Source: Trichoplax sp. H2 (taxonomy: Eukaryota). Taken from it: DNA of 40,653 bases. This document shows positions 12,733-40,653 of this stretch, piece after piece (position 1 is the stretch's first letter; each line of letters begins with the position of its first letter). Location of the stretch: contig NOWV01000175.1 in NCBI GenBank assembly GCA_003344405.1, forward strand, positions 124,001 to 164,653, given 5' to 3'. Under the pieces are notes generated by a model, which made no database searches, was not told the origin of the DNA, and saw only the letters and a program-made list of their open reading frames with translations. The translations under genes and the position numbers were made by a program.

Positions 12733-13399
12733 CAACTTGCTCTCTTTCTAACGGTATTAAGCTAACAGTTGATTTAGTAACATGTCCTATCGTAAGCGGT
12801 AAGCACGGCAACAATTACAGCATTAATCTCGATGGTAACAGCTTGCTCTCTTTCTAATGGTATTAACACTTAAATTAACAGCAGATTCAGTAATATCTCC
12901 TATGGCAAGTGGTAAGCACGACAACGATTGCAGCACTAATCTCGATAGAAGCAACTTGCTCTCTTTCTAATGGCATTAACACTTAAATTAACAGCAGATT
13001 CAGTAATATCTTCTATGGCAAGTGGTAAGCGCAACAACGATTGCAGCATTAATCTCGATAGAAGCAACTTGCTCTCTTTCTAATGGCATTAACACTTAAA
13101 TTAACAGCAGATTCAGTAATATCTTCTATCGTAAGTGGTAAGCACGACAACGATTGCAGCATTAATCTCGATAGAAGCAACTTGCTCTCTTTCTAACGGC
13201 ATTAAATTAACAGCAGATTCAGTAATATCTTCTATCGTAAGTGGTAAGCACGGCAACGATTGCAGCATTAATCTCGATAGTAGCAACTTGCTCTCTTTCT
13301 AACGGCATTAACCCTTCAATTAACAGCAGATTCAGTAATATCTCCTATCGTCAGCGGTAAGCATGGCAACGATTGCAGCAGAAATCTCGATCGTAGCAG
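12733..13399. repeat. Minisatellite, 6 copies of a 113-bp unit (two copies 106 bp)
   Basis: CA(A/G)CTTGCTCTCTTTCTAA starts at 12733, 12839, 12952, 13065, 13178 and 13284. Confidence 0.95.
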
Positions 13400-15510: not shown

Positions 15511-18500
15511 ATGGCTACCGCAAGTTGTTCATCAGCAAATCAAAAGATCCGAATTTGGCAATTTTTAGACGTTCATTTTGGAAGTTGGCGCTATTTCTCT
15601 GCCGATCAGTGCCAATCTTTGCGACAAGGAGTTGATCGTGGCCAACAAACGGTGCAATTGCAAGGCTGCATTGTCAACTTCCTATGCAACGAGATGCAAA
15701 TCCAACAGGGTAAGAGTTCATTTTAGCATGTTTACGATGCAAAGTTGCCCTTGTCGAGTGCATGGGGTGCCATGGCTAAGCCTTTTGCCATGCAATACCT
15801 CTGTGTTCATCCTGTGTCTTGGACGGATTCAGCTTGTAGATAAAATGCCACTTGGATAGGTTGAAATGTCAGCTTTGCAGTCAAGGTTACTGTATACTTA
15901 CTTTCGTTATTGAATCTTGATAGTGTTCTATTGAAATCCTCGCTTCGCTTTGATACAGGAAAAGAAAAGTCGAAGGATGCATGTCCCACAGTCTTGTTGG
16001 AACTATAGGATTGATCGGTTGCGTAGTATAGGATCTTACTTTCGTTATTAAATCCTTCTGATACTATTAAAGTTATTCCTTAGCGTTGATACAGTCAAAG
16101 AAAAGTCGAAGGGTGGATGCCTACAGTCTTGTTGGAACCATTTCACTGATCAGTTATGTAGTGTAGACTGTTATTTTCGTTATTCAATCCTTGTTATTAG
16201 ACCTGAGTGTACTGTGAAAGAAAAGTCGAAGGATGGAACTATTTCATTTGCCTTCTTTTCATGGAGTAGCACATCCAAAACCTAGCTGTTGATATTGTTT
16301 TTATCTTAGTTTTAGCCTTTGTGGTAAATTAACCTTGGCAATGGTAAAGGTTAACTCGGTATGATCGTCAATTCGCACTGTTGCTCAAGATAATAGATAC
16401 TAACTACTACTACTTGGTAGTTGGTAGATTGTGTCAGATTTAGCGATACGTTGAGGAGTGATTAACTTATGGACTCCCTTCTTCAGATGAGATTTTAGCT
16501 CCAAACGCTCAAAAACGTGTCATCTAGCAATTCAGTTTAGTCAGACAAATCAGTAAAACGATTGCTGTAGTGTTTTATTTCCATGAATCGTTCGTTCATC
16601 ATGTATGATAGTAACGGTAGTGAGAGAGTGTGAAATAACTGTTCGATAGGCAGCTAAACTCATCAGAAAAGGGCCCCCTGGCTTGATATTAGTTCTCTCA
16701 ACCTTGTTTCCTCCTATTTGGTATACGTATTCTTTACACTTGCTGTTAGTGTTACCTATTCTTATCCAATTATCCATCGTGTGTAACAAGAATAATAATG
16801 TGTCCAATTGTGAACGTTTTACAGTAGATCAACCCAATCTGCCAACCATAATTCCGATTCGACAAATCGATATTGCAGCCGATTCCATTATCGCTGAGGG
16901 CATCGCATGGGAATGGGAAATAGAACACAATGAATGGATTCCTTATAGGGACGATGCCAATGAATTAATCGAGCGGGAATTTTCGAGAAGCAAAAACCAG
17001 TGGAAAAAGGATGTGGACTTGTCTGTCATTGGCTTACCTTATACGATCAATTATAAAAAAAACTTTCAACGAAATACTTACAGCGGTTTCAAAAGAAAAA
17101 TTCGAAGAAATATTTACGGAAGCTACAAAGATACTTTACCAATAATTACGGATAATGATATGCAAGACGATTCTCTCCATAAGAAAGAATTTTCTACAGG
17201 TTTTATTCTATAGGCCTAATAACGTAATAACTTTTCATTGACTAATTTATCTTCCAACGCTAGCAACCTACAGTAGCAAAATATAACTATGCCATAGTGT
17301 CTTGGCAGAATGTTAAAAGCATGTTCTCCTTAACGCTGTCGATTGAGATTTAATGAACCGAAATGATCCCAAAGAGTAATTGTAACAAATTCTTCGTAGG
17401 CAACAACGACGATCTTAAAGGGACAAACTCTTCTGCAATTGAAAAGAAAGGAGAAAACTCAGAAAAGACGGCCGTTGATTTGACTCAGTCGCCACGTAGT
17501 AATGTTTCAGCATGGGATCGGAAATTGCATAAGCAAAAGTATAAACAGCTAGCTGATTTTATCTTACCAGTTGATAATCAACAATTGCCTGATGAGGTAA
17601 AATGATTGAAAAATTTGTTGCTATTATGTATGATGGTATTGGATATCTACCATGGATAGATGCATATAGTAATGTTCCTTTTCCTTGATAACTGCTTACA
17701 AATGTGCGTAGGATCAATTGCAGTTTGCATATTAGTAATATATACCTCGTCTATGCGTGACAAATGATAACTTGCATCATTGAAAACTCCTAAAGTCCAT
17801 TCTAGCTCAGTAACTATAATTGAAGTTCAGTAATCATACGAAAATACATATTTTTGAGCAAGTATAACATCGATCTTTATTAAATTAAAAGTATCATCTA
17901 GCTATACAATGTTAGCTTATTTATTGTTAGCTCGCTAAAGGGTATTGGAGTTAGAGGTTAGATTGCTATAGGGTGTATGCTCGTATCTGTATTATAACTA
18001 TTGAGTATTTCGGTACAGTTATAACGTTCAAAAGTCAATAGACACATTTTTAATGCTACTGCTATTTCGATGCATGACTGTTAGTTAAAATTGACAACAT
18101 TGAAATATCATTCCACCCCTTTCAATTTTATTATTATCGTTACAGAACTGCATTATATGCTTTGAAGAAGTGACAGCTGCATCAGGCTTTAGTAACGAAG
18201 ATGAAAGTAGCAGTCGTGTCGTCATGCTTAGCCAGTGCAAGCATTATTTTCACGACGAGTGTATTTTCGCGTGTGTGCAAAGTAAAACTGTAAGACCATG
18301 ATAACGTGATAAATATTCAAGTACTAAAGGCGATTGATATTCTCACCATAATGTGTAAATGTATCTTTAGATGTAAATTTGAGATGTTAACAGTCGAATG
18401 ACTGAAATATCCACTTTTCTCAATAAATGTAACATTAGATCAAGATACAAATACTGTCCAGGACTTCTAAGTAGACAATATTGAATCAATTCAAATATTT

Positions 18501-24356: not shown

Positions 24357-25545
24357 CCCTTCACTCTTCATCATCTTTATCGATGATCACCATTCCGTCA
24401 TCGTAGAAAGCACTATCCTATTCATCGTCGCTGTCTAGAAATACAAGGTACGAGGATATAAAATGCACTATTACTACGATTCCGTTCATCCTAGACTGCA
24501 TTCTACAATGTCCAAGCACTTTACTCTTCATCATCTTTATTGGTGACTACTATTCCGTAATTTTATAAAGCACTTGACTACTCATCATCCTTATCTATGC
24601 AGTACAGCACAGTACAATAGGTATAAAGTAGATAAAGTGGGCTATCGCTACGATTGCGTTAACCCTATACTGTACTACAGTAGATTGTATAATTTAGCTA
24701 ATTTAGTAAATTTTACGTAATTTACGTATCCCTTTACTCTTCATCGTCCTTTATCGATGACCACCATTCCGTCATCGTAGAAAGCACTGTACTATTCATC
24801 ATCGTTGTCTATAAATACAAGGTACGAGGATATAAAGTGCGCTATTACTACGATTCCCTTCATCGTAGACTGCATTCTAAAAAGCACTTTACAATCCATC
24901 CTCGTTGTCTATAAATACATGGTACGAGGATATAAGGTGCGCTATTACTACGATTCCCTTCATCGTAGACTGCATTCTAAAATGCACTTTACTATCCATC
25001 CTCGTTGTCTATAAATACATGGTACGAGAATATAAAGTGCGCTATTACTACGATTCCCTTCATCGTAGACTGCATTGTAAAAAGCACTTTACTATTCATC
25101 CTTGTTGCCTAGAAATACAAGGTACGAGAATATAAAGTGCGCTATTACTACGATTCCCTTCATCGTAGACTGCATTGTAAAAAGCACTTTACTATTCATC
25201 ATCGTTGCCTAGAAATACAAGGTACGAGGATATAAAGTGCGCTATTACTACGATTCCCTTCATCGTGCTGTAGACTGCATTCTAAAAAGCACTTTACTAT
25301 TCGTCATCGTTGTCTAGAAATACAAGGTACGAGGATATAAAGTACGCTATTACTACGATTCCCTTCATCGTGGACTGCATTCTAAAAAGCACTTTCCTAC
25401 TCATCATCCTTCTCTATCAATATAAAGTGTACTATTACTACGATTCCGTAATGCTATACACTGCATTCTGCAATTTCCAAGCACTTTACGATTCATCGTT
25501 CTCATCTGGAAATATAACGTGCACTATTACTACGATTCCGTAATC
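24357..25545. repeat. 100-bp minisatellite (about 6 well-conserved copies plus degenerate flanking copies)
   Basis: G(T/C)CTA(T/G)AAATACA(A/T)GGTACGAG occurs at 24807, 24907, 25007, 25107, 25207 and 25312, with an older copy at ~24433. A lead-in segment is duplicated at ~24357 and ~24730. Confidence 0.95.
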
Positions 25546-27154: not shown

Positions 27155-28950
27155 TGCAGTACTGTATACTCTAAACAGTGCACTGTACACTGTACAGTGT
27201 ACACGGTAGAGTAACGGACAACCGATTGGCAGGACAATACACCTACAGTACAGTACATGTTGAGTGCAGGCACAAGTACTGTCCATGCTGTACAGTACAG
27301 TACAGTACTGTACCCTGTACTCAGACCATCCTACAGTATAAAAGTTATCGCTATTACAGTACTAGTAGTACTGTACTGTACTGTACACTGTATGCTTTTT
27401 AACAGTACAGTACAGTACGTACAGTACTCCATTCAAAATTCTCTCTCGGTACACGGTAGAGTACGGACCACCGATTGGCAGGACAATACACCTACACTCC
27501 TACAGTACATGTTGAGTGCCGGCACAAGTACTGTACTGTCCATTACAGTATAAAAGCCATCGCTATTACAGTACTAGTAGTACAGTACACTGTACTGTAC
27601 AATATGCTTTTTAACAGTACAGTACACTAGTACAGTACTGTACTGTACTTGTACTCCATTCAAAATTCTCTCTCGGTACACGTACAGTACAGTACACTGT
27701 ACTGTACATGTACTGTACACTGTACAGTACAGTACAGTATGAACCAACAGCTGTTACAGTACAGTACTGTAACACTGTACACTGTAGGCGATAGTCCTGT
27801 CGATTACAGTGTACTGTACTGTACAATACAGTGCCCACCAAAGTACTGTACACTGTACACTGTACACTATTGTACGTGTTCTAGTCGGTAGTGTACAGTA
27901 CGCCAGCGCAGTAGTGGGTGGAATGCGGTCTGAAAGTGCTATACTAAGCAGACATGGTAGCGACATACTGTATTTCAGCAATGTTGCAAGGGGGATTGGA
28001 TGCATCTTTCCATCGATCCGTTAGAAGACGCGAGGAGAAGCCTTTACATGCCTTTGGATAAGCTCATTACAGTATTTGCTTTCTTTTAGTGTGGGTCGAT
28101 ACTGGTTAATCAAGTGGCGTGCAGTTGATTAAGGTTGAAGAAACGCCATCGANNNNNNNNNNNNNNNNNNNNGTACTCCATTCAAAATTCTCTCTCGGTA
28201 CACGGTAGAGTACGGACCACCGATTGGCAGGACAATACACCTACACTCCTACAGTACATGTTGAGTGCCGGCACAAGTACTGTACTGTCCATTACAGTAT
28301 AAAAGCCATCGCTATTACAGTACTAGTAGTACAGTACACTGTACTGTACAGTATGCTTTTTAACAGTACAGTACACTAGTACAGTACTGTACTTGTACTC
28401 CATTCAAAATTCTCTCTCAGTACAGTACACGTACAGTACACTGTACTGTACATGTACTGTACAGTTCACGGTAGAGTAACGGACCACCGACTGGCAGGAC
28501 GATACACCTACAGTACAGTACATGTTGAGTGCAGGCACAAGTACTGTCCATTACAGTACTGTACTGTATAAAAGCCATCGCTATTACAGTACTAGTAGTA
28601 CACTGTACTGTACAGTATGCCTTTTAACAGTACTGTACAGTACAGTATAGTACGGTACAGTACAGTACTCCATTCAAAATTCTCTCTCGGTACACGTACA
28701 GTACAGTACTGTACACGGTAGAGTAACGGACCACCGACTGGCAGGACGATATACCTACAGTACATGTTGAGTGCAGGCACAAGTACAGTACTGTACAATG
28801 TACTGTACATGCTGTACTGTACAGTACTGTACACTGTACTCAGACGGTCAGACCATCCCAAAAAGTCATCGCTAGTACAGTACTGTATACTGTAAGTGTA
28901 CAGTACAGTACAGTAAAGTACAGTACTGTACTGTACATACTGTACAGTAT
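27155..28950. repeat. ~220-270-bp tandem repeat heavily interspersed with CAGTA/TACTG pentamers
   Basis: Core CTCCATTCAAAATTCTCTCTC at 27427, 27654, 28177, 28398 and 28667. Core GGTAGAGTA(A)CGGAC.ACCGA.TGGCAGGAC at ~27205, 27455, 28204, 28470 and 28716. Confidence 0.92.
28153..28172. other. Assembly gap (20 N)
   Basis: Run of 20 n within the repeat. Confidence 1.
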
Positions 28951-29592: not shown

Positions 29593-30910
29593 TGTAATCC
29601 TGTGACTTTTCATAAATGTGAGTTTATGAAAGGCGAAAGCGGCTGGAAACAATTACAAGCTGTTGACTTTACTGACTGAGAACGTGGTAAGTATATCAGT
29701 TTTATTACTCTACAAATTTGAATTTGCAGCTATGTCGTTGCCAAAATTTTAATCGAAAATTTTGTCCAATAAATCAAATTAAATACTCTAATCAGGATTG
29801 CAAGAATAGCACAAATTCCAGTTTACTATTGGGAATTTAGCTATAACTTCAACATCATAACCTGATTTCTTGCTCAATGTATATTTTCGTCTACTTTTAA
29901 AAGATGCTAAAATAGGAATGGTTCTCAATTCCAAATATGAGAACATTAATGGCCAATATGCGGATATGATTAGTCCCCCAATGGTGAAATCTCATGAAGC
30001 AAATTCAATTAGGGTAATTCCTTACTGGTATTTAAGATGATGATTTGAAGATCAGCTTACTTTGCAAAAATTTAAACTCTCATGACTATATGAAAAATTT
30101 AGGCTTGAAAGATAATTATTACGCTTATGTCCAGAGATTTCCATATAATTCGACAGTTTCTACAGCAATTCTACGAAGTCCAGTTTTACGACGAAATTCA
30201 GATAGTCAGTCAGTGGAGGTAGCTTCAAAAAGTCGGGCTGTTTTCTTTAAGACAGATTTCTATAAGCTATTATGACAATGCCAACATCAAATTGACTCAT
30301 TTCTATTACATTTGATTTTGCAAAAAAGATGTATTACCGTCGTTTGATTATCGGCTTTCAAACTGGAACCTACGCTATCAGGTATCAATACGTTAACAGC
30401 ACATTTATCACCTTAGATTTTGGAGTTTTAGTTCCAAGTTCTCGAGAGAGCTGGAGTAAAGTTGGTGTTCCGCCGAATCAATTCTATCCCACCGAAGATT
30501 TTACTGTAAGTCATGCAAAATAAATCTTAAGATACGAGTTAATTACGTCTTATTTACGGCAAATACTTTTATTCGCTCAATTATCCATACAGATGGAAAT
30601 CGTGTATGAACTGCGTGGCTCAAGTACACCGTCTTCAGGCGGCATCCTAATCGATGATATTGAAGTAACTAATTCCAAGGAAGGTAATGATTACCAAATA
30701 GAATATAGAAAAATGAAATAGGAACAAGGCTTAATTTTTTGATGGAGTACCTTATGGTGTTATTGTGTCTTAAAGACTAAAAAGTTCTTCAATACGCTAG
30801 TTAATTCCGGAACCAATAAAGCATTTGGTCTATTTCATGCTGCAACCGTGGTGGGGATAGCCATTTTGAGTACCTTGCTGACACTATCGCCCTCGAGTCT
30901 GCTATTTTGA
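29593..30910 (+). pseudogene. MAM-domain protein with C-terminal GPI-anchor-like signal, disrupted at its 5' end
   Basis: Phase-compatible exons ~29593-29686, 29916-30013, 30329-30505, 30593-30683 and 30801-30910: KCEFMKGESGWKQLQAVDFTD*ERGMVLN...YADMISPP...MYY...ESWSKVGV...GGILIDDIEV...NSG..FHAATVVGIAILSTLLTLSPSSLLF*. MAM motifs CxF..GW, DW, SP and IxIDDI are present, with TGA 29677-29679 at the conserved Trp. Confidence 0.7.
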
Positions 30911-31149
30911 TTTATGGATGCTTCTGGATAGGCGAAATTGGACCAAAGCCTTTAACGCTTATTGTTGTAATTATTTAGATAATTAATAGATCTCAGATAC
31001 TCTGATCCAATATTTATAGTAGTTTTTACAAGTACGTTCAGCTCAATGCCTGAATGTGGGACTAAGCAAAGTACTCTGATTATTAGCAAGATTATCGAAG
31101 ATAACAGAGTATCTAATACTGTATGAGATCTAATTTAACTTAGGTAATT

Positions 31150-31612
31150 ATTATTTTACAACATTGACACGAGATCCAATAAGCTGAAAGTTTTTCGACG
31201 CTTGATGTGGATACCGAAGTTGTAACATTTAATGGTAGTTTATTAACAACTTACAACGCTAACGATAGATTCAATAAGAAGTAAGTCTTCTGCCACTTAG
31301 CATGGATACCAACTTTTTTAGTTTTATTGATAGTTTATTAATAACTTATAATGCTAAGACAGATCTAATAAGGTGTATACTTTCTGACTCTTGATATGGA
31401 TTCCGAAGTTTTTAACTTTTAATAATAGTTTATTAATAACTTAAAACGTTAACGATATATCTAACAAAGCGCATGTATTATGATACTTGATATGGATACT
31501 AAAATTTCTAGTTTTTAATAACAGTTACTAATAATTTTAATGACAGATCCAATATGTTGCAAGTCATTTGACATTAGATATGGATACGAAAATATTTAGC
31601 TTTTAATAATTG
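31150..31612. repeat. Degenerate ~95-bp tandem repeat, about 5 copies
   Basis: TGGAT(A/T)C marker at 31208, 31303, 31397, 31493 and 31581, with shared AGAT(C/T)(C/T)AATAA and TTTATTAA(T/C)AACTT blocks. Confidence 0.85.
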
Positions 31613-34469
31613 TAATAGAAGTTATTTAGCCTAGTAACTACAGCAATGTCAGTTTGCTTAGGAAAGTCAAAGTTAGAAAGATCAAATAAAGCATTTGAAA
31701 TTATAAATCATATTTTGATGGAGATTTAATGACTGATCCAATAATTTTTTGTTTATATACTGATACTTGAGTGTAAGGAATAGTCCACAGATACTATACA
31801 CATTTGCCATAAACTAATGGGGCATTGTTGAAATATGCCGGTTGTACAATTTTACTTACATTAGTATCAGAATGCGAGATAAATCTAGAATATAACACAG
31901 TGTAGAATCTAATAGTAAACAACCTTAATTAATATAAATCAATCAACGATCAATTAAGACCTAGAGAATCAGCACCACTAAATCATTTAAGAGACTCAAA
32001 TTAATAATAACTCACTAACAAGTAAGGTTGGTGCTAAATTAAATATCATAATAAACATAATCATGTCATAGTCCATTATCACTTCCAACTACAAATTAAT
32101 TTACACATAACAAGAATGAACATCGTGACACGCACTAAAATTTTTACTAACAGTTACTGGAGAGCGTATTGAATGTTGGTGCTAGACATGGTTACAAAAC
32201 TCAATCGTTTCTTGGTTTAGAAGAAAGTTATCCAAAACTACTGTTTCTACTATTTCCCCGAAATGGTTTACTTTAAAAGATATGTGGCCAACGGATTGCT
32301 TTGGGCTCTACTCAATTGTAGGTAGTATTCATTCCAATAATAATTTTGGATACTGTAAGGAGCGATATAAGCGAATCAAATCAAATTTGTACAGGTAGTT
32401 GTTACTTAACTAAACTTGCCTAATCTAAACTAATTAAATTACCGTAGATAAGTAACAATGACTGAGAAATGCACTTTCGGAATCTTCTAGCTATATCTTT
32501 ATTCTAGAAAATACAAGTCTGATTTAATATTCAAAATCAATCATTTAAATAGCTGTTCTAGCAATAAAACCAGCTTACGATGTGTGATATATTTCGACCA
32601 ATAAGACTTCGTGAATACATTAAATTATTCCTAGTCTAATCCAATGAATTTGTAATATTAATATAGATTAACTTTATGTTTCCTCTAGCTTATAATTAAC
32701 AGGATTTATATCGAATTTACCATTGACAATTCATATACTATATTTAGTATAATTTAAGCTGTATTAGGAACAGGTTTGTATCGGCTATATTAAGTCTTAA
32801 ATTAATTCATGCACAAATCCTAATTGATAACTATCTTATCGTGATCCATATACATATCTAAATTAAGTAAGATATCATTCATCACAGTTGATTCACTACC
32901 GTGACAAAAGTACAGTTTGCACAGCGTTTCTGTATAGGGAATAACAATGAATGTCTGTATTTCCGGGTAGGAAGTCAGAATAATTGTGAATTTCTCTGTA
33001 ATATATAGGTAATGTAGGAGTATGTCCAGTTCAGTGTGTTGTGTATTTATATTTGTTTCTGTTACGAAATCAAGGTTACTGCAAACCTTAACATTAAAAA
33101 AAATGATGTTGTATGACGTCGTTGTATAACACTGTAATTTAGTAGCAAGTCATTATCAACCAATATTACGATATATTGTATTCAAAAGCTAGTCAAATTA
33201 TGAATTATCTTGACCAGCTCTAACAGGGTTTGCAGCCATCGTCACCTTACATTTCTGCTTTATTCGCTGCAAAACAAAAAGACAGGGTTAGATGTAGAGC
33301 GAAGTAAGTCTACGAATGTACAGTTATGTAGATACTGGATTGTCACTTAAGAGCTTTGCTGATGTCATTTTTTTAAATCGAATAAACTTATGCTAAGCAG
33401 TATCACTATGCTCAAATCTAATTTAATACGGTATAACATTGTTTTGTACAATTGATACACCAAATACAAGTTTCATAACGAAATTAAAACGACCAAACTA
33501 GCTAAGACCAAATAGGCTATGATTAAACTGTGATTATTGACAGGTGGCTGAAGGGTTGTTATAAAATTGAAATAGGGTTAGGTTTTCTTAAGATATTATT
33601 GGCTTTAGATTGATTTTATCGCAATGATAAATCAGTATTTGTATGAATGCTATCGATTTGTTTGTGATATAATCTTGTCATACGCAACAGAAATTGATGA
33701 GAATTAAATCATTTGGCTGGCTTAAGTTAAAATCTCATACTAATGAAATGAATAACTTCTAATTGGCTAGGTCTGTACTTACGTATCGTGATAAGATAAG
33801 CCAACATGAGTGTCAAAGAAGTTAAAACAGTATACAAATTCAATGAAATGAAATTGCAAATTAGCCAATCGTTAACAAGAGTTGGACTCAGGCATATTTT
33901 GTCAAGATTACTTTACAGTTTACGAAGATGATGTCAAGATACGAGAATAAAAGTAGTAGTCGATAAAAGTTGGCAATCGCAGTAGCTAAGGTAGTCGAAT
34001 GCAATACTGTTGGACTGTGAAGAATGCATCTAGGCTAAATAGAATTTAGAAAAATGTGAAAAGAGTAGCCCATACATGTAATTTTGGAGCTGATTAGAAA
34101 GAAGAATTCAGAATAGCTTGCAACCCACAATATTTATTTCTATTGACTCAAAATCTCCCTATCTAACATTGCTTCCAGTATAATTTCATTGTAATATAAG
34201 TGCTTTTATTTTCCAATGCTACGAGTTATCGTGCAGATATTATCAATGCTAGCATGCATAAATACTAAAATGGACGAAAAGTATACTTCTGCAGTATTGA
34301 AATACTCGTGTCGTGAGTTTAGCATTTGAGTTCAATTCTGATTTAAACGTGGAATTACTAATATGCGCAACAGTATGCTATAATACTTGCGTAGTTTAAC
34401 GCAATTGGTTGCTCGTACCCCGTGTAATGTAACTAGTATTGTGATTGTAGACCGTTTGCCATGTTTAGC

Positions 34470-35373
34470 ATGCCGTTTGGATTACACAGTGCTCCAGCTA
34501 CGTTCCAGCGTTTGATGGATGCAGTGCTAAAAGATTTACAGGGAGTTGCTAGTGTCTACTTGGATGACACTATCGTCTATAGTGCAAATTGGAAAGAACA
34601 TTTGCAGCACCTGGGAACTGGTATTCGATCGATTGCGACAATTTGGATTAAGTGTTATAGAAGAAAAGTGCAATTTCGCAAGCAACACTGTGTCACATTT
34701 GGGACACACGATTGGAAATGGACGAATAGCGCCTATAGATGTACATGTTAGAGCCATAATAAAATTAAAGACGCCAACTACGAAGAAAGAAGTACGTTCA
34801 TATCTTGGAGCTGTTGGCTATTATAGGAAATTCATAAAAGAATATACCGAATGGACTGCGCCATTGGTAGAATTGACTAAGAAGGCAAAGATGAATGAAG
34901 TGAAATGGACCGAACAATGTGAAGAAAGCTTCCAGAAATTAAAGGAGAAATTAGCAAGTGGTCCGACTTTGAAAATTATAGAGCCGGATAAGAAATTCAT
35001 CCTGCAAACGGACGCCTCCGAAGTTGGTCTTGGAGCCGTATTGTCTCAATTGGATGAAAAAGGCGAAGAAAGACCCGTAATATTTGCTAGCCGAAAACTG
35101 AAGCAAGCTGAAATCAATTACACGGTAATTGAAAAAGAGTGTTTAGTTGTTGTTTACGCTGTAAAATTGTTCTACATTTACTTAGATGGTCGAGTGTTTG
35201 TTTTACAAACTGACCATAAGCCGTTAATATGGCTTGCTCATATGTGTAACGATAACCAGCGGTTAATGCGTTGGTCTATGTTTTTGTCGCAGTTTAAGGT
35301 TAATATTAGACATAGACCGGGTAAAAGTAATGGCAATGCAGACGTATTATCTAGACTAGTAATGGATAATTGA
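34470..35373 (+). pseudogene. pol: pol fragment: C-terminal half of RT plus RNase H, one frameshift near 34615
   Basis: MPFGLHSAPATFQRLMD...YLDD...EHLQHL, frameshift, then KCNF...YLGAVGYYRKFI...FILQTDASEVGLGAVLSQ...FASRKL...EKECL...TDHKPL...RW...GKSNGNADVLSR, then stop. Confidence 0.93.
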
Positions 35374-35458
35374 TTATTTGACCAGCGTGCCGGGAAAACT
35401 TTCGTAAGCTTGTTAGTTTGTAGAATTTTGTATTGGTACAAAATTCTAGACGGACGAA

Positions 35459-36012
35459 AGTAACGTAACTAGTATTGTGATTGTAGACTGTTAGCCATGT
35501 TTAGTATAATAATGTACGGTAGATATTTATCCTATGAGATATTTGGTAGACATAACTATAGACTGTGGTGGTATAGACTCTATGCTAGAGTGCAGATGAC
35601 TATATACAGTAAGGTGTTGAGTTACTAATAATGCTATAGGTAAAAATAGAACTGTAAATCATATGTTAGGATATGGTTAATTCATCGTACTTTGGCTGGT
35701 GTGAATAATGTCTACGTAAGTACTGTTGTCGTATCCATATCGGATTAATGATGGTCCGCAGTAGAATAGTCTTACTAAGAATAATTTAACTATGTGTAAA
35801 AAAAGGTAAAAGGTTGCCATGCGGATTGTAGCTGCGAATGCTACGGAAAGTATAAAAGCATGCAACTTTAGATTATTCTGTTAGTTCGTTGTAGAAGTCT
35901 TTAGAAGTAGTATTCGGCTAGAGAAGAGCTGTGTGTAGTTAATCTTTGTATAAGATCCAATAAAGCCCTTATTTTATTAAAATTTGGAATTTCGTGATTG
36001 GTATATATCACA
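35459..36012 (+). repeat. 3' LTR (~554 bp)
   Basis: Begins AGTAACGTAACTAGTATTGTG after a purine-rich AGACGGACGAA tract, contains TATAAAA (35851) and AATAAA (35959), and ends ATCACA before the TSD. Confidence 0.85.
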
Positions 36013-36090
36013 CCCCGGTAAAATATGGTAATTTAATGCCCGTATTTAGCGCGTGAAAGCGTGATAATGTTACTACCATCACTTACTAGG

Positions 36091-36416
36091 AGATAGAGAA
36101 GACCTGAACCCACACGAAAAATAATAACAAAAAGATAATAAAAGGAAATAAAAAATATAACACTAAAAATCGAATATATACGCCGCGCGAGCGCAAAGAA
36201 ATATATATATCGTTTCAACTCTGTAATTTTCTATATATATTTATGCAATAATGTATTATTGCATAAATATATATAGAAAATTACAGAGTTGAAACGATAT
36301 ATATATTTCTTTGCGCTCGCGCGGCGTATATATTCGATTTTTAGTGTTTCATTTTTTATTTCCTTTTATTATCTTTTTGTTATTATTTTTCGCGTGGGTC
36401 CAGGTCTTCTCTATCT
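36091..36416. mobile_element. 326-bp palindromic TIR-only element with AG...CT ends and 6-bp TSD (Polinton/Maverick-like mini-element)
   Basis: Arms 36091-36252 and 36255-36416 are reverse complements (4 mismatches counted) around a 2-nt spacer. Ends are AGATAGAG...CTCTATCT, and the direct repeat ACTAGG lies at 36085-36090 and 36417-36422. Confidence 0.85.
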
Positions 36417-39400
36417 ACTAGGTCATGCACTAGGATTTTATAAGCGTATGTATCGAGTAGATCGCGAGTTCTTCTTGTTCATAGTTTGTTATCAATACAG
36501 TTGCAGTTAGTTTCAGTGTATTAAAGCTTAATTCGACTTTTAAATCCACTTAGTCTGACTTATTGTGGACCCTTAAGAATTGACTTCAATACAAATACAT
36601 TCCTGATGCAAAATTGCCTTATCAATCAAATCAATCCATTTAACATCAAAATCGAACCAGGTTATACACTAATCGATCCTCAATTCTATAAGATAATTTC
36701 AACTGTCAAAAATATTCTAGTACTTGCAACTATTTTCGGTTTAAGTTTTAAAAGAAATTACTTGAGGATATAGAAATATAGTTGCACTGCGGCATGAATT
36801 ATCACTCGATAATCTGCATTAATTTAAAAGGCTGCTTGCTTTTGCGAACATACATACCCACAGACGTACAAAATTCGGACAGTCCAATTTGATGTATACA
36901 AGTCTCGTAATATTCAATGAATTAAAATGATAATTTTTTAGCTATAACGTTAATTGAATGATCTTGCTCATTGAATTTTCCTTATACAATATAATAGAAA
37001 ATTGATTAATTTTACAGTTGAATAATTTATTATGGCTAACAAGTAGTAAAATATTGTCCATAAAGTTCCTTCCCTGTGATTTTATTGATTTTAGTAGTTT
37101 GTGTTGACTGAATAAATCTATTTATCCTTCATTTTACCGACGTATAACGCTAATATTATTAGTACAACGATAATTATTAGACTTAACTTTGTATGGACAA
37201 AAAAATGATAGTCAAAGTATTTGTTATTAATATTACGATCGGCAACTTACTAGCACGATTGTTAATAATATTTTTCCTTATTTAAGATATGACGTAGAAG
37301 ATTTATCCTTCAAAGTCGTTTTACTATCTTATTACAATTCTAATCAGCGAATAATATGACAAGAACTTGAATTTCTTATTAACTTGACATTATTACTCTA
37401 CCCTGCACTGTCAGTACAGATCATATATATAAATAAGTTCTACTGAGAGCTATCTACATCTATCTTTGCAGTGATAATAAACACTTGCACAATTTTACAT
37501 TTTAACTTACAAACCAATCCATTTGAAGTTGTATTTCTCGTACGATGGTATGACTACAAATATTCAAATCTTCGTAGAATTAAGGAAATAACGATCAGAC
37601 TAACATTGATTGTGGCGTAGCTGTTTAGGACGAAAGAGTTTCCTTGTGATTAGTATGATAGATTAAATTATTTAGGACTATGACAAATGGATGATTTTCA
37701 CATTAAAGTCATGGTGAATTACTTTAATGCATGGAATCGTAAGGTCTATATTCTTTACCGCAACCGCTATAGCTTATAGAAAATAATCCTGCTGTCAACA
37801 GTGTAAAATTGGATTCATGCAGCCTTGATAACACACTTTCTAATTTCGTATGCATCAAGACTGTTTCCATCTGACGAATAGAAATGATTTTCGATAGTGC
37901 AATACGAGAAAAGTTGCAGCCATTTATGTAGCACTAATAACTGATTTCACCATTAATCGATTACTCTACTGTCTGTAGCATGCGTTTGTCATCTTCTATA
38001 CTAAACTACACTTAGAGTGCAGATTATATTGTACTAAAGGCTTTAAACATCTCATAACGAAGGAAGAAATGGATAAGAAAATTTTCAGCTAGCAAATTAA
38101 TCCTTCACTCAGCTGTGTACTCCACTGTGGAATCTACTACTATGCAGTACATTGTACTACACTCTGGTTAGGCGGGCAGTTTGTTGAACGTTTGATACTC
38201 CATCTTTGGCCAACACATATTCTCTTGCAATTTCATCATTGCTTGTTGGAATCATTTTCATTTTAATGAGTAGATGGTGCGGTAGTAACAGTGGCAGTCG
38301 TAGTCGATCAGATCTGCAATCGGCATAGCTATCAACGAATAAAATAGATAATGAAGTTTATACTTATCCTAGTTGCAGTTTTATTTATAATTATTGGACT
38401 CAGTGCCAAGAGGAATGGGTCTCCAAGATAATCGACGCAAATGGAAACAGAAAATATCCAATCAATAGGTAAGCTGTAGATTGATGAATACATAAGCAAT
38501 GATGGAGTAGAGATGCGCATTGAATTCCATAGAAAAGTTGATCAACTACCGTGCGCCAGTAATAGTCGAACAATTTATTTCTTATTGCTACTCGTAGTCA
38601 AACTGGTGATAATTATAATGAATTTTTATCCATAGACTACTAGCGGATAGAATTTGGAATCTTAAAAATATCGAAGAAAACAACATTATTGTAGATCGAA
38701 TCATGAATTTTACTTTTCATCTTAAGACGTGATAAAGATGTGAAAATTTTGCTTACAAGAGCAAAATCGGCGAGTAAATTAATTAATTAATCATCTAATG
38801 CAATATTTACATCCATCATCGAATGGATTTGCTCAATCTCGCTCACTTAACCAATGTTGCACTCATTGTAGGTAGTATAGAACGCTGACTACAATTCAAC
38901 GATGCATGGAGTACAAATTGATGAGCATGCAGCATAGTAATTGAAAAGATGACTTAAAACCTGGCCAATATTTCAGAAGGAAAAGAAACGTATGCTCATT
39001 GGCCTGATCCCTACGATTTTCCTAGTTTTTCTTCTTTTGTTTGAGTGGAGATCAGGGCAATGAACAAACGTTTCTTCTCGTTCTAAAACATTGGCCCTTA
39101 AACCTTCACCGGGTAAAGTGGATAGTGATCGCCACATTCACTGTCACATTTTCCCATCTATGAAAATGGCTAAATGGAATAAACATGCAAACCGTGTTAA
39201 TGTAACCCTTTCTGCCATATTGAACCGCAGATACATAGCTAGCTGGCAAAATTTGATGTCATTGTATTATTAACTCTTGCAAAGTACCGATTGAAAATAT
39301 TGAAAGGGTGCTATTGAATCAACCAAGTCTTTGATTACTATATTAATTGCCTGTATGAGTTGGTAACCAATCTACAGAATGAGAAATTGACTGTTTCTAC

Positions 39401-39821
39401 CACAATTCAAGTGTAATAACAAAGTAATGATGGAGTAATAAGTTAAAAGTGTTCTAGAAGAGGAGAATAGAGCATTTTGTAGCCTTTTCAAGTTCAATAA
39501 GAGAAATCTTTAAACAAAAAGTTAGCATGATAGCTTAATCGAAGATTAAAGTAAACTATGACAGAGTTTTAGCCATTGAGGATTAAGGGTCAGTAGAGCT
39601 TCTCCTGTACAAGTCATCATGTGATGGATCTGGATAAATGAGATCAGTGTTGTATCCTGTCTGTCCTCGTGCGCATATACTGGGTGTATACTAACATTGA
39701 GTGGAAAATAGAGCAGCAGAGTGGATGCTTCTTGTCATCCCAGTCAAATTCAAGCAATCAATATACTGCAGATTTTGTATTGATTTGTGTCTAAAACGAA
39801 GCAAATGATCTGTCTTTCGAG

Positions 39822-39995
39822 GTATCCAATGAATTTATGAGCGTAAACTAGGTCTGTTTCATCCCACAATTTGAAAAATAAAGATTGTGCCTGTAGAGTG
39901 CAAAGAGAAATAGGTGAGAAACTAAGTATCTAATGAATTTATGAACGTAAACTAGATCTGTTTAATCCTACAATTGATTAATAAAAACAGATTGA
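39822..39995. repeat. Two-copy ~104-bp direct repeat
   Basis: GTATC(C/T)AATGAATTTATGA.CGTAAACTAG.TCTGTTT at 39822 and 39926. Confidence 0.8.
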
Positions 39996-40653
39996 TTTAT
40001 ATGTAGAAAGAAATGGACTCTATGGCTGGTTATTGTACGCATATATGATTGCTATTGCTGCAATAGATATGAGGAAAAGTGTGTATTAGGTCGATCTAGT
40101 GTGTATGTCTATGAAATATTAAACTTATAGACAATTGCAAAGGGCGTAATTAGTGAAAGTTAAATGTTGAAAGAACGATTACTTGGTAATCTTATTTATA
40201 CTGACGCGATGAAGATGAAACTCTTTACTTGATGACGTGGTTGTACAACTGGGAGCAGTTGCATTTATTCAAACCAGTTGAACTAATGAATGTCAACACC
40301 AATATCTACCAATTCATTATTATATTGTAGCTATGTCGTAACGTCAAAGTTACCAAGGTGGTTGATACCTTATAGTATATCGGGAATTCTCTCTTTACTT
40401 TCACAGACTTCTTTTCCTTAAACAGTCCCCGATTACACAGCTTAATTGACTAGGGCATCAGCTTTGCAAGAATAGTACTGTAGATATGGTGTATGATTTT
40501 ACTCACACACAAGTTACTGTATCTACTACAAAAGTAACTTATTACTTTAATCAGATATACTGTACGTGTGTGTAAAACTCAAGTACTACTGTGATGCACT
40601 ATCTAATTTTATTTTCAAGTATTGCAGTAAAACGGAAGATTGATCCATGTAGG

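Follow-up and report, generated by a model that had tools for sequence, protein, structure and literature searches.

A hairpin element in the Trichoplax genome as a probable gene-less derivative of the ends of a polinton-like virus

A 40,653-bp stretch of the Trichoplax sp. H2 genome (contig NOWV01000175.1, positions 124,001 to 164,653; hereafter the window, with coordinates counted from its first base) contains a hairpin element at 36091–36416, the ends of which lead to a polinton-like virus (PLV). The element is 326 bp long with a G+C content of 28%, and consists of two 162-bp arms around a 2-nt centre (36253–36254). Its termini read AGATAGAG...CTCTATCT, and the arms differ at only four pairs of positions (36107/36400, 36114/36393, 36157/36350 and 36158/36349). 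No other inverted repeat of the window is as long (167 nt, compared with 54 nt for the runner-up), and its predicted fold (−175.6 kcal/mol, z = −43) was equalled by none of 100 shuffled sequences. An earlier note on this DNA, made from the sequence alone, had described a palindrome of this length, arm size, loop and number of mismatches bounded by the hexamer ACTAGG, and each of these features was reproduced (Table 1).

Table 1 Parts of the hairpin element and its target-site duplications (TSDs). Names beginning with C denote contigs of the assembly; end families and terminal cassettes are described in the text.
Feature	Coordinates	Strand	Basis
Left TSD, ACTAGG	36085–36090	+	One copy at the empty site, C798
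Left 20-bp tip, viral terminal motif, one substitution at 36107	36091–36110	+	C850 provirus has the same tip
Left arm, positions 1–166 of the 201-bp family-1 terminal cassette	36091–36256	+	151/163 bases identical to the C235 cassette
Two-base diagnostic variant in the left arm, common to the C370 and C192 copies	36157–36158	+	Comparison of arms
Centre, 2-nt loop and 2-nt overlap (microhomology) joining the arms	36253–36256		Junction 166/162, overlap 2
Right arm, family-1 cassette positions 1–162, inverted	36255–36416	-	154/162 bases identical to the C235 cassette
Right 20-bp tip	36397–36416	-	Identical to the tips of the C850 provirus end, C235 end and C634 end
Right TSD, ACTAGG	36417–36422	+	Direct repeat matching the left TSD

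The hairpin is a real insertion, as confirmed by the presence of the corresponding empty site on contig C798, where a single ACTAGG lies between contiguous flanks (97% identical on the left, 92% on the right) and no element is found. Moreover, in contigs of three of four sequencing runs (X1, X5 and X9, but not X18) position 36083 is followed directly by 36416, so that 332 bp are skipped, equal to the element plus one hexamer (326 + 6). Runs X5 and X9 come from two other studies and carry another species label; X1 is counted as non-independent because it is possibly the source sample of the assembly. Since the flanks of the empty allele have diverged by several percent, the insertion is younger than the split of the haplotypes, which does not imply a very recent age. 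The locus was also assembled twice, on C214 and C556 (99.7% identical over 10 kb), with the same hairpin and the same differences between its arms. The region is present in three versions, namely C214 (window 30015–40016), C556:4–10000 and the diverged empty haplotype of C798; C919 and C399 form another near-identical pair of duplicate contigs. That an assembler created the hairpin by mirroring a collapsed repeat is extremely improbable. None of the listed contigs from the four runs spans the hairpin centre, and N gaps and doubled halves are seen in other copies of the family, but all four arm differences lie within 68 bp of the flanks, and the exact TSD, the empty allele and the second assembled copy with the same differences fit a real insertion, leaving only the exact centre, which is taken from the assembly because no listed contig bridges it. 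The earlier note had looked to an empty ACTAGG site for support and had held that the duplicated hexamer speaks against a chimera; the empty allele was found on C798 and in contigs of three of the four runs, and TSD, empty allele and second assembled copy agree on the second point.

With one arm as query, 47 matches were obtained in the 94.9-Mb genome, and a tip pattern of 15 nt had 50 exact matches whereas its reversed control had none. After removal of two duplicated loci, 21 loci carry the window's type of end (family 1) and six have ends of a diverged type in which the 20-bp tip is unchanged (family 2). Left out of these counts were C157 and C930 (another repeat), C419 (tip only), a fragment on C188, and the duplicates C556 and C399. 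The candidates at C157:98503 and C930:281690 were rejected as members because they represent a different repeat that has 15 nt of the tip motif without its first bases and without the cassette. Fifteen two-ended copies were examined for a TSD, and as C399 is a duplicate, 14 are distinct; exact 6-bp TSDs flank 13 of these, all 13 hexamers being different, and the TSD of the 14th has one mismatch. Multiple copies with differing 6-bp TSDs are thus present, as the earlier note had anticipated. The two-ended copies, or minis, are 105–361 bp long, with two exceptions: a family-2 copy of 849 bp and, on C192, a gapped span of 1062 bp, probably a hairpin that was mis-scaffolded. Many are strongly asymmetric. 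Specifically, one end is reduced to 10–15 bp on C5, C197 and C852 with the TSD still present (with one mismatch on C5), and one end lacks exactly its first 4 nt on C309 and C919 with the TSD still perfect. The description of a pure hairpin therefore stands for the window copy but not as the general form of a family of such variable length and symmetry. Nor do the minis show the uniform length and single master of a classical family of MITEs (miniature inverted-repeat transposable elements). Four further copies are one-ended and truncated (C741, C175, C933 and C634). None of the 14 distinct two-ended copies combines a family-1 end with a family-2 end, and an attempt, made by eye, to pair unpartnered ends across contigs through their flanking hexamers gave no match.

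The virus was located by tracing one such tip, that of C634, into coding sequence. On C634 a family-1 end is joined directly to a fibre-like frame and an A32-like ATPase, and this viral part is 97.5–99.3% identical to contig C546. The genes of C546 comprise an integrase with rve domain and chromodomain (PF00665, E = 8e-12), a C5-like protease whose match (E = 3e-4) is at the cut-off, a double jelly-roll (DJR) capsid protein (PF21738, E = 5e-22), a P-loop ATPase and a VLTF3-like gene. It also has a frame of 897 aa. Over a stretch of 325 bp, C546 is 99.7% identical to C850, on which frames resembling helicase and HNH sequences (judged by eye, without Pfam match), subterminal repeats and a family-2 end with the tip are present. 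Over the 648 aa searched, the 897-aa replicase frame matches 'S1H [Trichoplax MELD virus]' (1294 aa) at 99% identity; both this frame and that of the ATPase are broken in this assembly. In the available text of Starrett et al. 2021 (PMC8502044), Trichoplax MELD virus is a virus with adintovirus-like virion genes and S1H in place of PolB. An older, degraded virus fragment lies at C231:55162–58309 (integrase, protease and capsid; 68–89% identity by piece); it has no tip, and its integrase and capsid frames contain stops.

The Pfam matches of the 897-aa frame do not include PF03175, the canonical protein-primed polymerase B (pPolB). A genome-wide search with PF03175 was blank, but so was its control, so it is uninformative; a genome search with PF04665 gave no candidates, and a search of the replicase against PDB sequences gave no match at E ≤ 1. 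Residues invariant in all 24 aligned relatives are D568 (motif-A-like), T785-D786 (motif-C-like), C277/H375 and G872/G874/K875. The palm motifs and the HNH-like C terminus were read by eye, the palm giving no profile match. Judged by these motifs, the helper replicase appears to be a PolB-helicase fusion of the Tlr1/PLV kind and not a canonical Polinton PolB. The earlier note had expected a helper Polinton or Polinton-like virus in this genome, and an rve integrase, ATPase, protease and capsid gene do occur with the same terminus, but in place of canonical pPolB there is an S1H fusion.

C850, C235 and C634 carry a tip without a single difference from the right tip of the hairpin. When the comparison is extended to the entire arm, 154/162 bases agree with C235, 148/161 with C634 and 108/149 with C850. 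Thus the window element is like Trichoplax MELD virus in that the C850 provirus end has its 20-bp tip and the C546 replicase is 99% identical to that of the virus, and unlike the C850 end in that its arms belong to a sister end type, matching fully in the 20-bp tip only and about 72% identical overall. The family-1 end on C235 leads into subterminal repeats that are 70–85% like those of C850 and into a DUF3102-like frame; on C970, repeats related to these and such a frame are linked to viral helicase sequence. The C970 segment (positions 1–2857), in which 321 bp are identical to the viral helicase region, is probably an internally deleted form of the virus or an assembly node. Family-1 and family-2 ends are identical at 149 of 200 aligned bases and have the same layout; from this comparison, family 1 would be the end of a sister lineage or a variant of the same virus. 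The family-1 viral ends found (C235, C575 and C634) are all truncated, and the hairpin arms cover no more than the outermost ~165 bp of what is a longer end in the virus. The proposal that the element is a virus reduced to its two terminal inverted repeats (TIRs) holds in that both ends are kept, but not in that whole repeats remain or that a parent was found. Separately, tandem arrays on C561 (5000–10000), C637, C678 and C738, with a 25-bp unit and 92 copies in one array, resemble the viral subterminal repeat (74–88% over 40–100 bp); it may be that these host satellites come from the subterminal motif of the virus, or that the motif comes from them.

Taken together, these data make it very likely that the hairpin, gene-less and non-autonomous, derives from the termini of a PLV of the Trichoplax MELD virus lineage and was inserted in trans by the viral rve integrase. 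Movement in trans by the viral integrase is inferred from the length of the TSDs, the shared tip and the shared junctions described below, and suggests that this integrase has repeatedly put tiny defective versions of the genome into the host. The earlier note's classification of the element as a non-autonomous derivative is borne out by its multiple copies, their varying 6-bp TSDs and a terminus in common with an integrase-bearing virus.

The earlier note had not foreseen that the virus-type end repeats its tip, in inverted orientation, about 200 bp further in. Six ends (C235 and C575; C850, C1, C426 and the right end of C268) share the layout of tip, 160–190 bp, inverted tip and subterminal repeats. 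On C235 and C850 the inner tip matches the reverse complement of the outer tip at every base. It starts at position 182 of the family-1 cassette and 207 of the family-2 cassette; in single-stranded DNA the two tips would fold into a 20-bp stem (z −6.7 and −5.8). A parvovirus-like flip-flop of the cassette was considered but found no support, since all six intact cassettes (C235, C575, C850, C1, C426 and C268) have the same orientation. Because the cassette from tip to inner tip resembles a MITE of 201–230 bp with 20-bp TIRs, we asked how well the data fit a MITE that belongs to an unrelated cut-and-paste superfamily, makes a 6-bp TSD and sits by chance at the virus ends; one MITE family of ~20 copies and five non-autonomous DNA transposons in Repbase are given for Trichoplax in the available part of PMC2871265. 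We consider this very improbable. None of five cassettes is flanked by a TSD, which makes them portions of longer ends; what flanks them on the outside differs from one to the next, while on the inside they enter related subterminal repeats; the two diverged end families (149/200) keep one layout; and no transposase frame was noticed beside any tip in the lists of open reading frames (ORFs), of which selected ORFs were scanned with Pfam. A single-protein search gave no relatives in viral or metagenome contigs in which the inner tip could be sought; an alignment search gave four distant IMG/VR loci (32–39% identity), none with terminal repeats in the DNA present, and the exact tip had no match in viral contigs.

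The breakpoints of the minis cluster at the margin of the inner tip. Mapped on the observed C235 cassette (values for C798 and C634 by eye), the long-arm breakpoints of 12 two-ended copies are 166 (the window), 187, 171, 174, 187, 187, 109, 92, 115, 90, 162 and 181, and those of six gapped or one-ended copies are 187, 181, 181, 185, 162 and ~183. With shared junctions counted once, 12 of 16 distinct family-1 breakpoints fall at cassette positions 160–188; under a null in which the longer of two uniform breaks is taken, P = 6e-5, which is only a guide because the interval was picked after seeing the data and the copies are related. In family 2, all three broken ends stop at 201–206, with the inner tip at 207, and no family-1 mini reads through the inner tip. 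Eleven of the 12 mapped two-ended junctions (lengths 105–361 bp) are distinct, as would be expected if full proviruses or longer palindromes had been inserted and then cut down by host repair, with no mini ever having moved. The truncated one-ended copies on C741, C175, C933 and C634 also fit such remnants, long palindromes with short spacers are prone to breakage according to the available text of PMC7999016, and centre-out trimming of a ~370-bp palindrome would likewise give one breakpoint near 185. Against this, identical junctions occur at different loci with different flanks (C309/C242; C192/C798), indicating that some minis predate insertion; unguided deletion is unlikely to have removed ~17 kb at 13 family-1 loci and to have placed both breaks no more than 190 bp from the ends; and the breakpoint cluster recurs where the cassette is joined to viral or unrelated sequence (C634, C741, C933 and the left end of C268). 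We therefore regard an origin of the family purely by erosion in the host chromosome as improbable, although trimming of an already short palindrome after insertion is compatible with the derivation from viral ends that we favour.

The window copy carries information on its own origin. Three derived sites of C370 and C192 occur in both of its arms, but the fourth C370/C192 variant, at 36157–36158, is present in the left arm only; the right arm agrees there with every other copy that includes the site. Since the arms differ here, the hairpin is not a snap-back of one arm but draws on two templates, and the snap-back origin suggested earlier, which calls for a single template, is not upheld. This allele pattern would point to a two-ended parent, the ends of which were unlike each other at a single site, or else to a switch between two molecules; the arms would have been joined through a central deletion or a switch at the 2-nt overlap (166/162). 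C309 has a mixed allele pattern similar to that of the window copy. C663 looks like a near-perfect palindrome with its centre at the base of the inner tip and may be the longest form of mini.

To account for these structures we lean towards a model of strand-displacement replication. In this model the outer and inner tips would pair into the 20-bp stem during replication, synthesis begun at an end would stall at the base of the stem, and the stalled synthesis would switch to another end via 0–3 nt of microhomology. The products would be short linear DNAs with a tip on each side, consisting of palindromes of up to ~370 bp and of shorter or asymmetric deletion forms. It is highly probable that integration needs only the tips, with 10–15 bp sufficing on one side. 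In protein-primed initiation, as in adenovirus, the new strand jumps back after initiation. By analogy, the ends that are short by 4 nt would fit a slip of register on the repeated AGA of the tip, either through a failed jump-back or through a slip of the integrase. The sharing of junctions between different sites by C309/C242 and by C192/C798 suggests that some minis were copied before insertion, and we put the chances that they were copied as free molecules at about even. More tentatively, and with the balance of probability somewhat against it, each viral end could be a self-contained panhandle origin, formed by the tip and its inverted copy 200 bp inward, that has no need of the far end 17 kb away and that spawns tiny defective replicons, copied by the replicase as free linear DNA and integrated into the host.

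Several points weigh against the derivation from viral ends or against parts of the model. No full-length parent with the window's exact end type and a TSD was found among the best candidates scored in this fragmented assembly, and searches for integrase and capsid genes gave only C546, the tipless C231 and a weak integrase match on C754. Short-read assembly garbles such hairpins, as seen from N gaps and doubled halves on C192, C370, C619 and C663, so the centres of some copies may be wrong. Free mini-DNA is not among the observations, and we infer free replication of the minis from their junctions; that 11 of the 12 are distinct would also fit trimming after insertion. Four of the 16 breakpoints (90–115) are far from the inner tip, and stall-and-release would predict intact tip-to-inner-tip cassettes flanked by a TSD, a form seen in none of five. 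Finally, the polymerase domain of the replicase is assigned from motifs and literature.

The hairpin lies among other repeats. A ~550-bp high-copy repeat resembling a long terminal repeat (LTR) at 35459–36012 ends 72 bp to the left of the hairpin TSD, and relatives of it occur near other tip loci (C101, C370, C268, C426, C933 and C5), which may reflect the abundance of the repeat or a common insertion habitat. A Gypsy-type pol fragment on the plus strand (34437–35373) comprises the tail of a reverse transcriptase and an RNase H, with no long integrase frame downstream in the window's ORF list. Minisatellites and ACAGT-rich tracts lie at 2191–2866, 12733–13398, 24781–25416, 31197–31534 and 27244–28949 (periods of 76/238, 113, 100 and 95), the ACAGT motif being a known Trichoplax feature. 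A WWE-domain frame on the plus strand at 16650–17213 is probably an exon of a host gene.

Polintons (Mavericks) have AG...CT ends, and non-autonomous Polinton entries may be held in Repbase. MITEs and copy-back or snap-back defective genomes are gene-less, keep both ends and depend on a helper. Unlike these, the minis lack a uniform master, vary in length, have a viral rve integrase as their likely mover and, in the window, arms from two templates. The hairpin family shares with canonical Polintons a 6-bp TSD and long TIRs (available text of PMC3014272), and the helper shares with them an rve integrase, ATPase, protease and DJR capsid but differs in having no canonical pPolB. In the accessible parts of the PLV literature, rve integrases typically give 6-bp TSDs (PMC12220804), and Tlr1-type PLVs have an rve integrase and a replicase of 1000–1400 aa with a C-terminal SF1 (superfamily 1) helicase and HNH domain; the helper appears likewise to be of the fusion type but has a maturation protease, which Tlr1 and most PLVs do not. 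As far as the same sources go, Tlr1-type proteins are palm-helicase-endonuclease fusions that were first thought inactive and whose palm domain has a role that awaits experiment (Krupovic 2016, PMC5499653), and such palm domains were later predicted to be active and protein-primed (Krupovic 2024, PMC11161782).

With regard to precedents, the available text of PMC8502044 describes neither mini-derivatives nor an inner inverted tip, and the supplement text at hand does not contain the word 'Trichoplax'. TIR-only satellites are not mentioned in the portions of PMC5499653 and PMC11161782 covered, and those of PMC8363768 and PMC12220804 hold no precedent for the mini family. In the accessible text of a lizard Polinton study (PMC3014272) non-autonomous copies are apparently absent, and in that of a Caenorhabditis elegans study (bioRxiv 2024.01.15.575659) TIR-only Polinton remnants are products of rearrangement. 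A search for non-autonomous or TIR-only Polinton derivatives in literature outside Repbase and most subscription journals gave no description of the minis or the inner tip. The supplements of PMC2871265, which apparently give no MITE sequence, did not contain the tip, and because the MITE and Repbase entries of that paper come without visible sequences in the parts available, the mini family may already be catalogued without a link to the virus. Thus the helper is already published, whereas for the minis and the inner tip no description was found in the literature searched.

These natural deletion derivatives narrow the cis-acting sites to the 20-bp tip, with 10–15 bp sufficing on one side, and the inner inverted tip that they expose can be tested with oligonucleotides; for PLVs with a PolB-helicase fusion, replication start and integrase recognition have so far been matters of prediction. 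The minis also connect heritable changes in the host's genome with a virus that had been assembled from reads, and they reveal repeated, still polymorphic insertion activity in an animal whose transposons are called scarce and inactive in the available text of Wang et al. (PMC2871265). If the panhandle-origin model were true, the family would be a fossil record of defective-interfering genomes of an animal PLV, and would map both the minimal integration site (10–15 bp) and the register of initiation (through the 4-nt slip).

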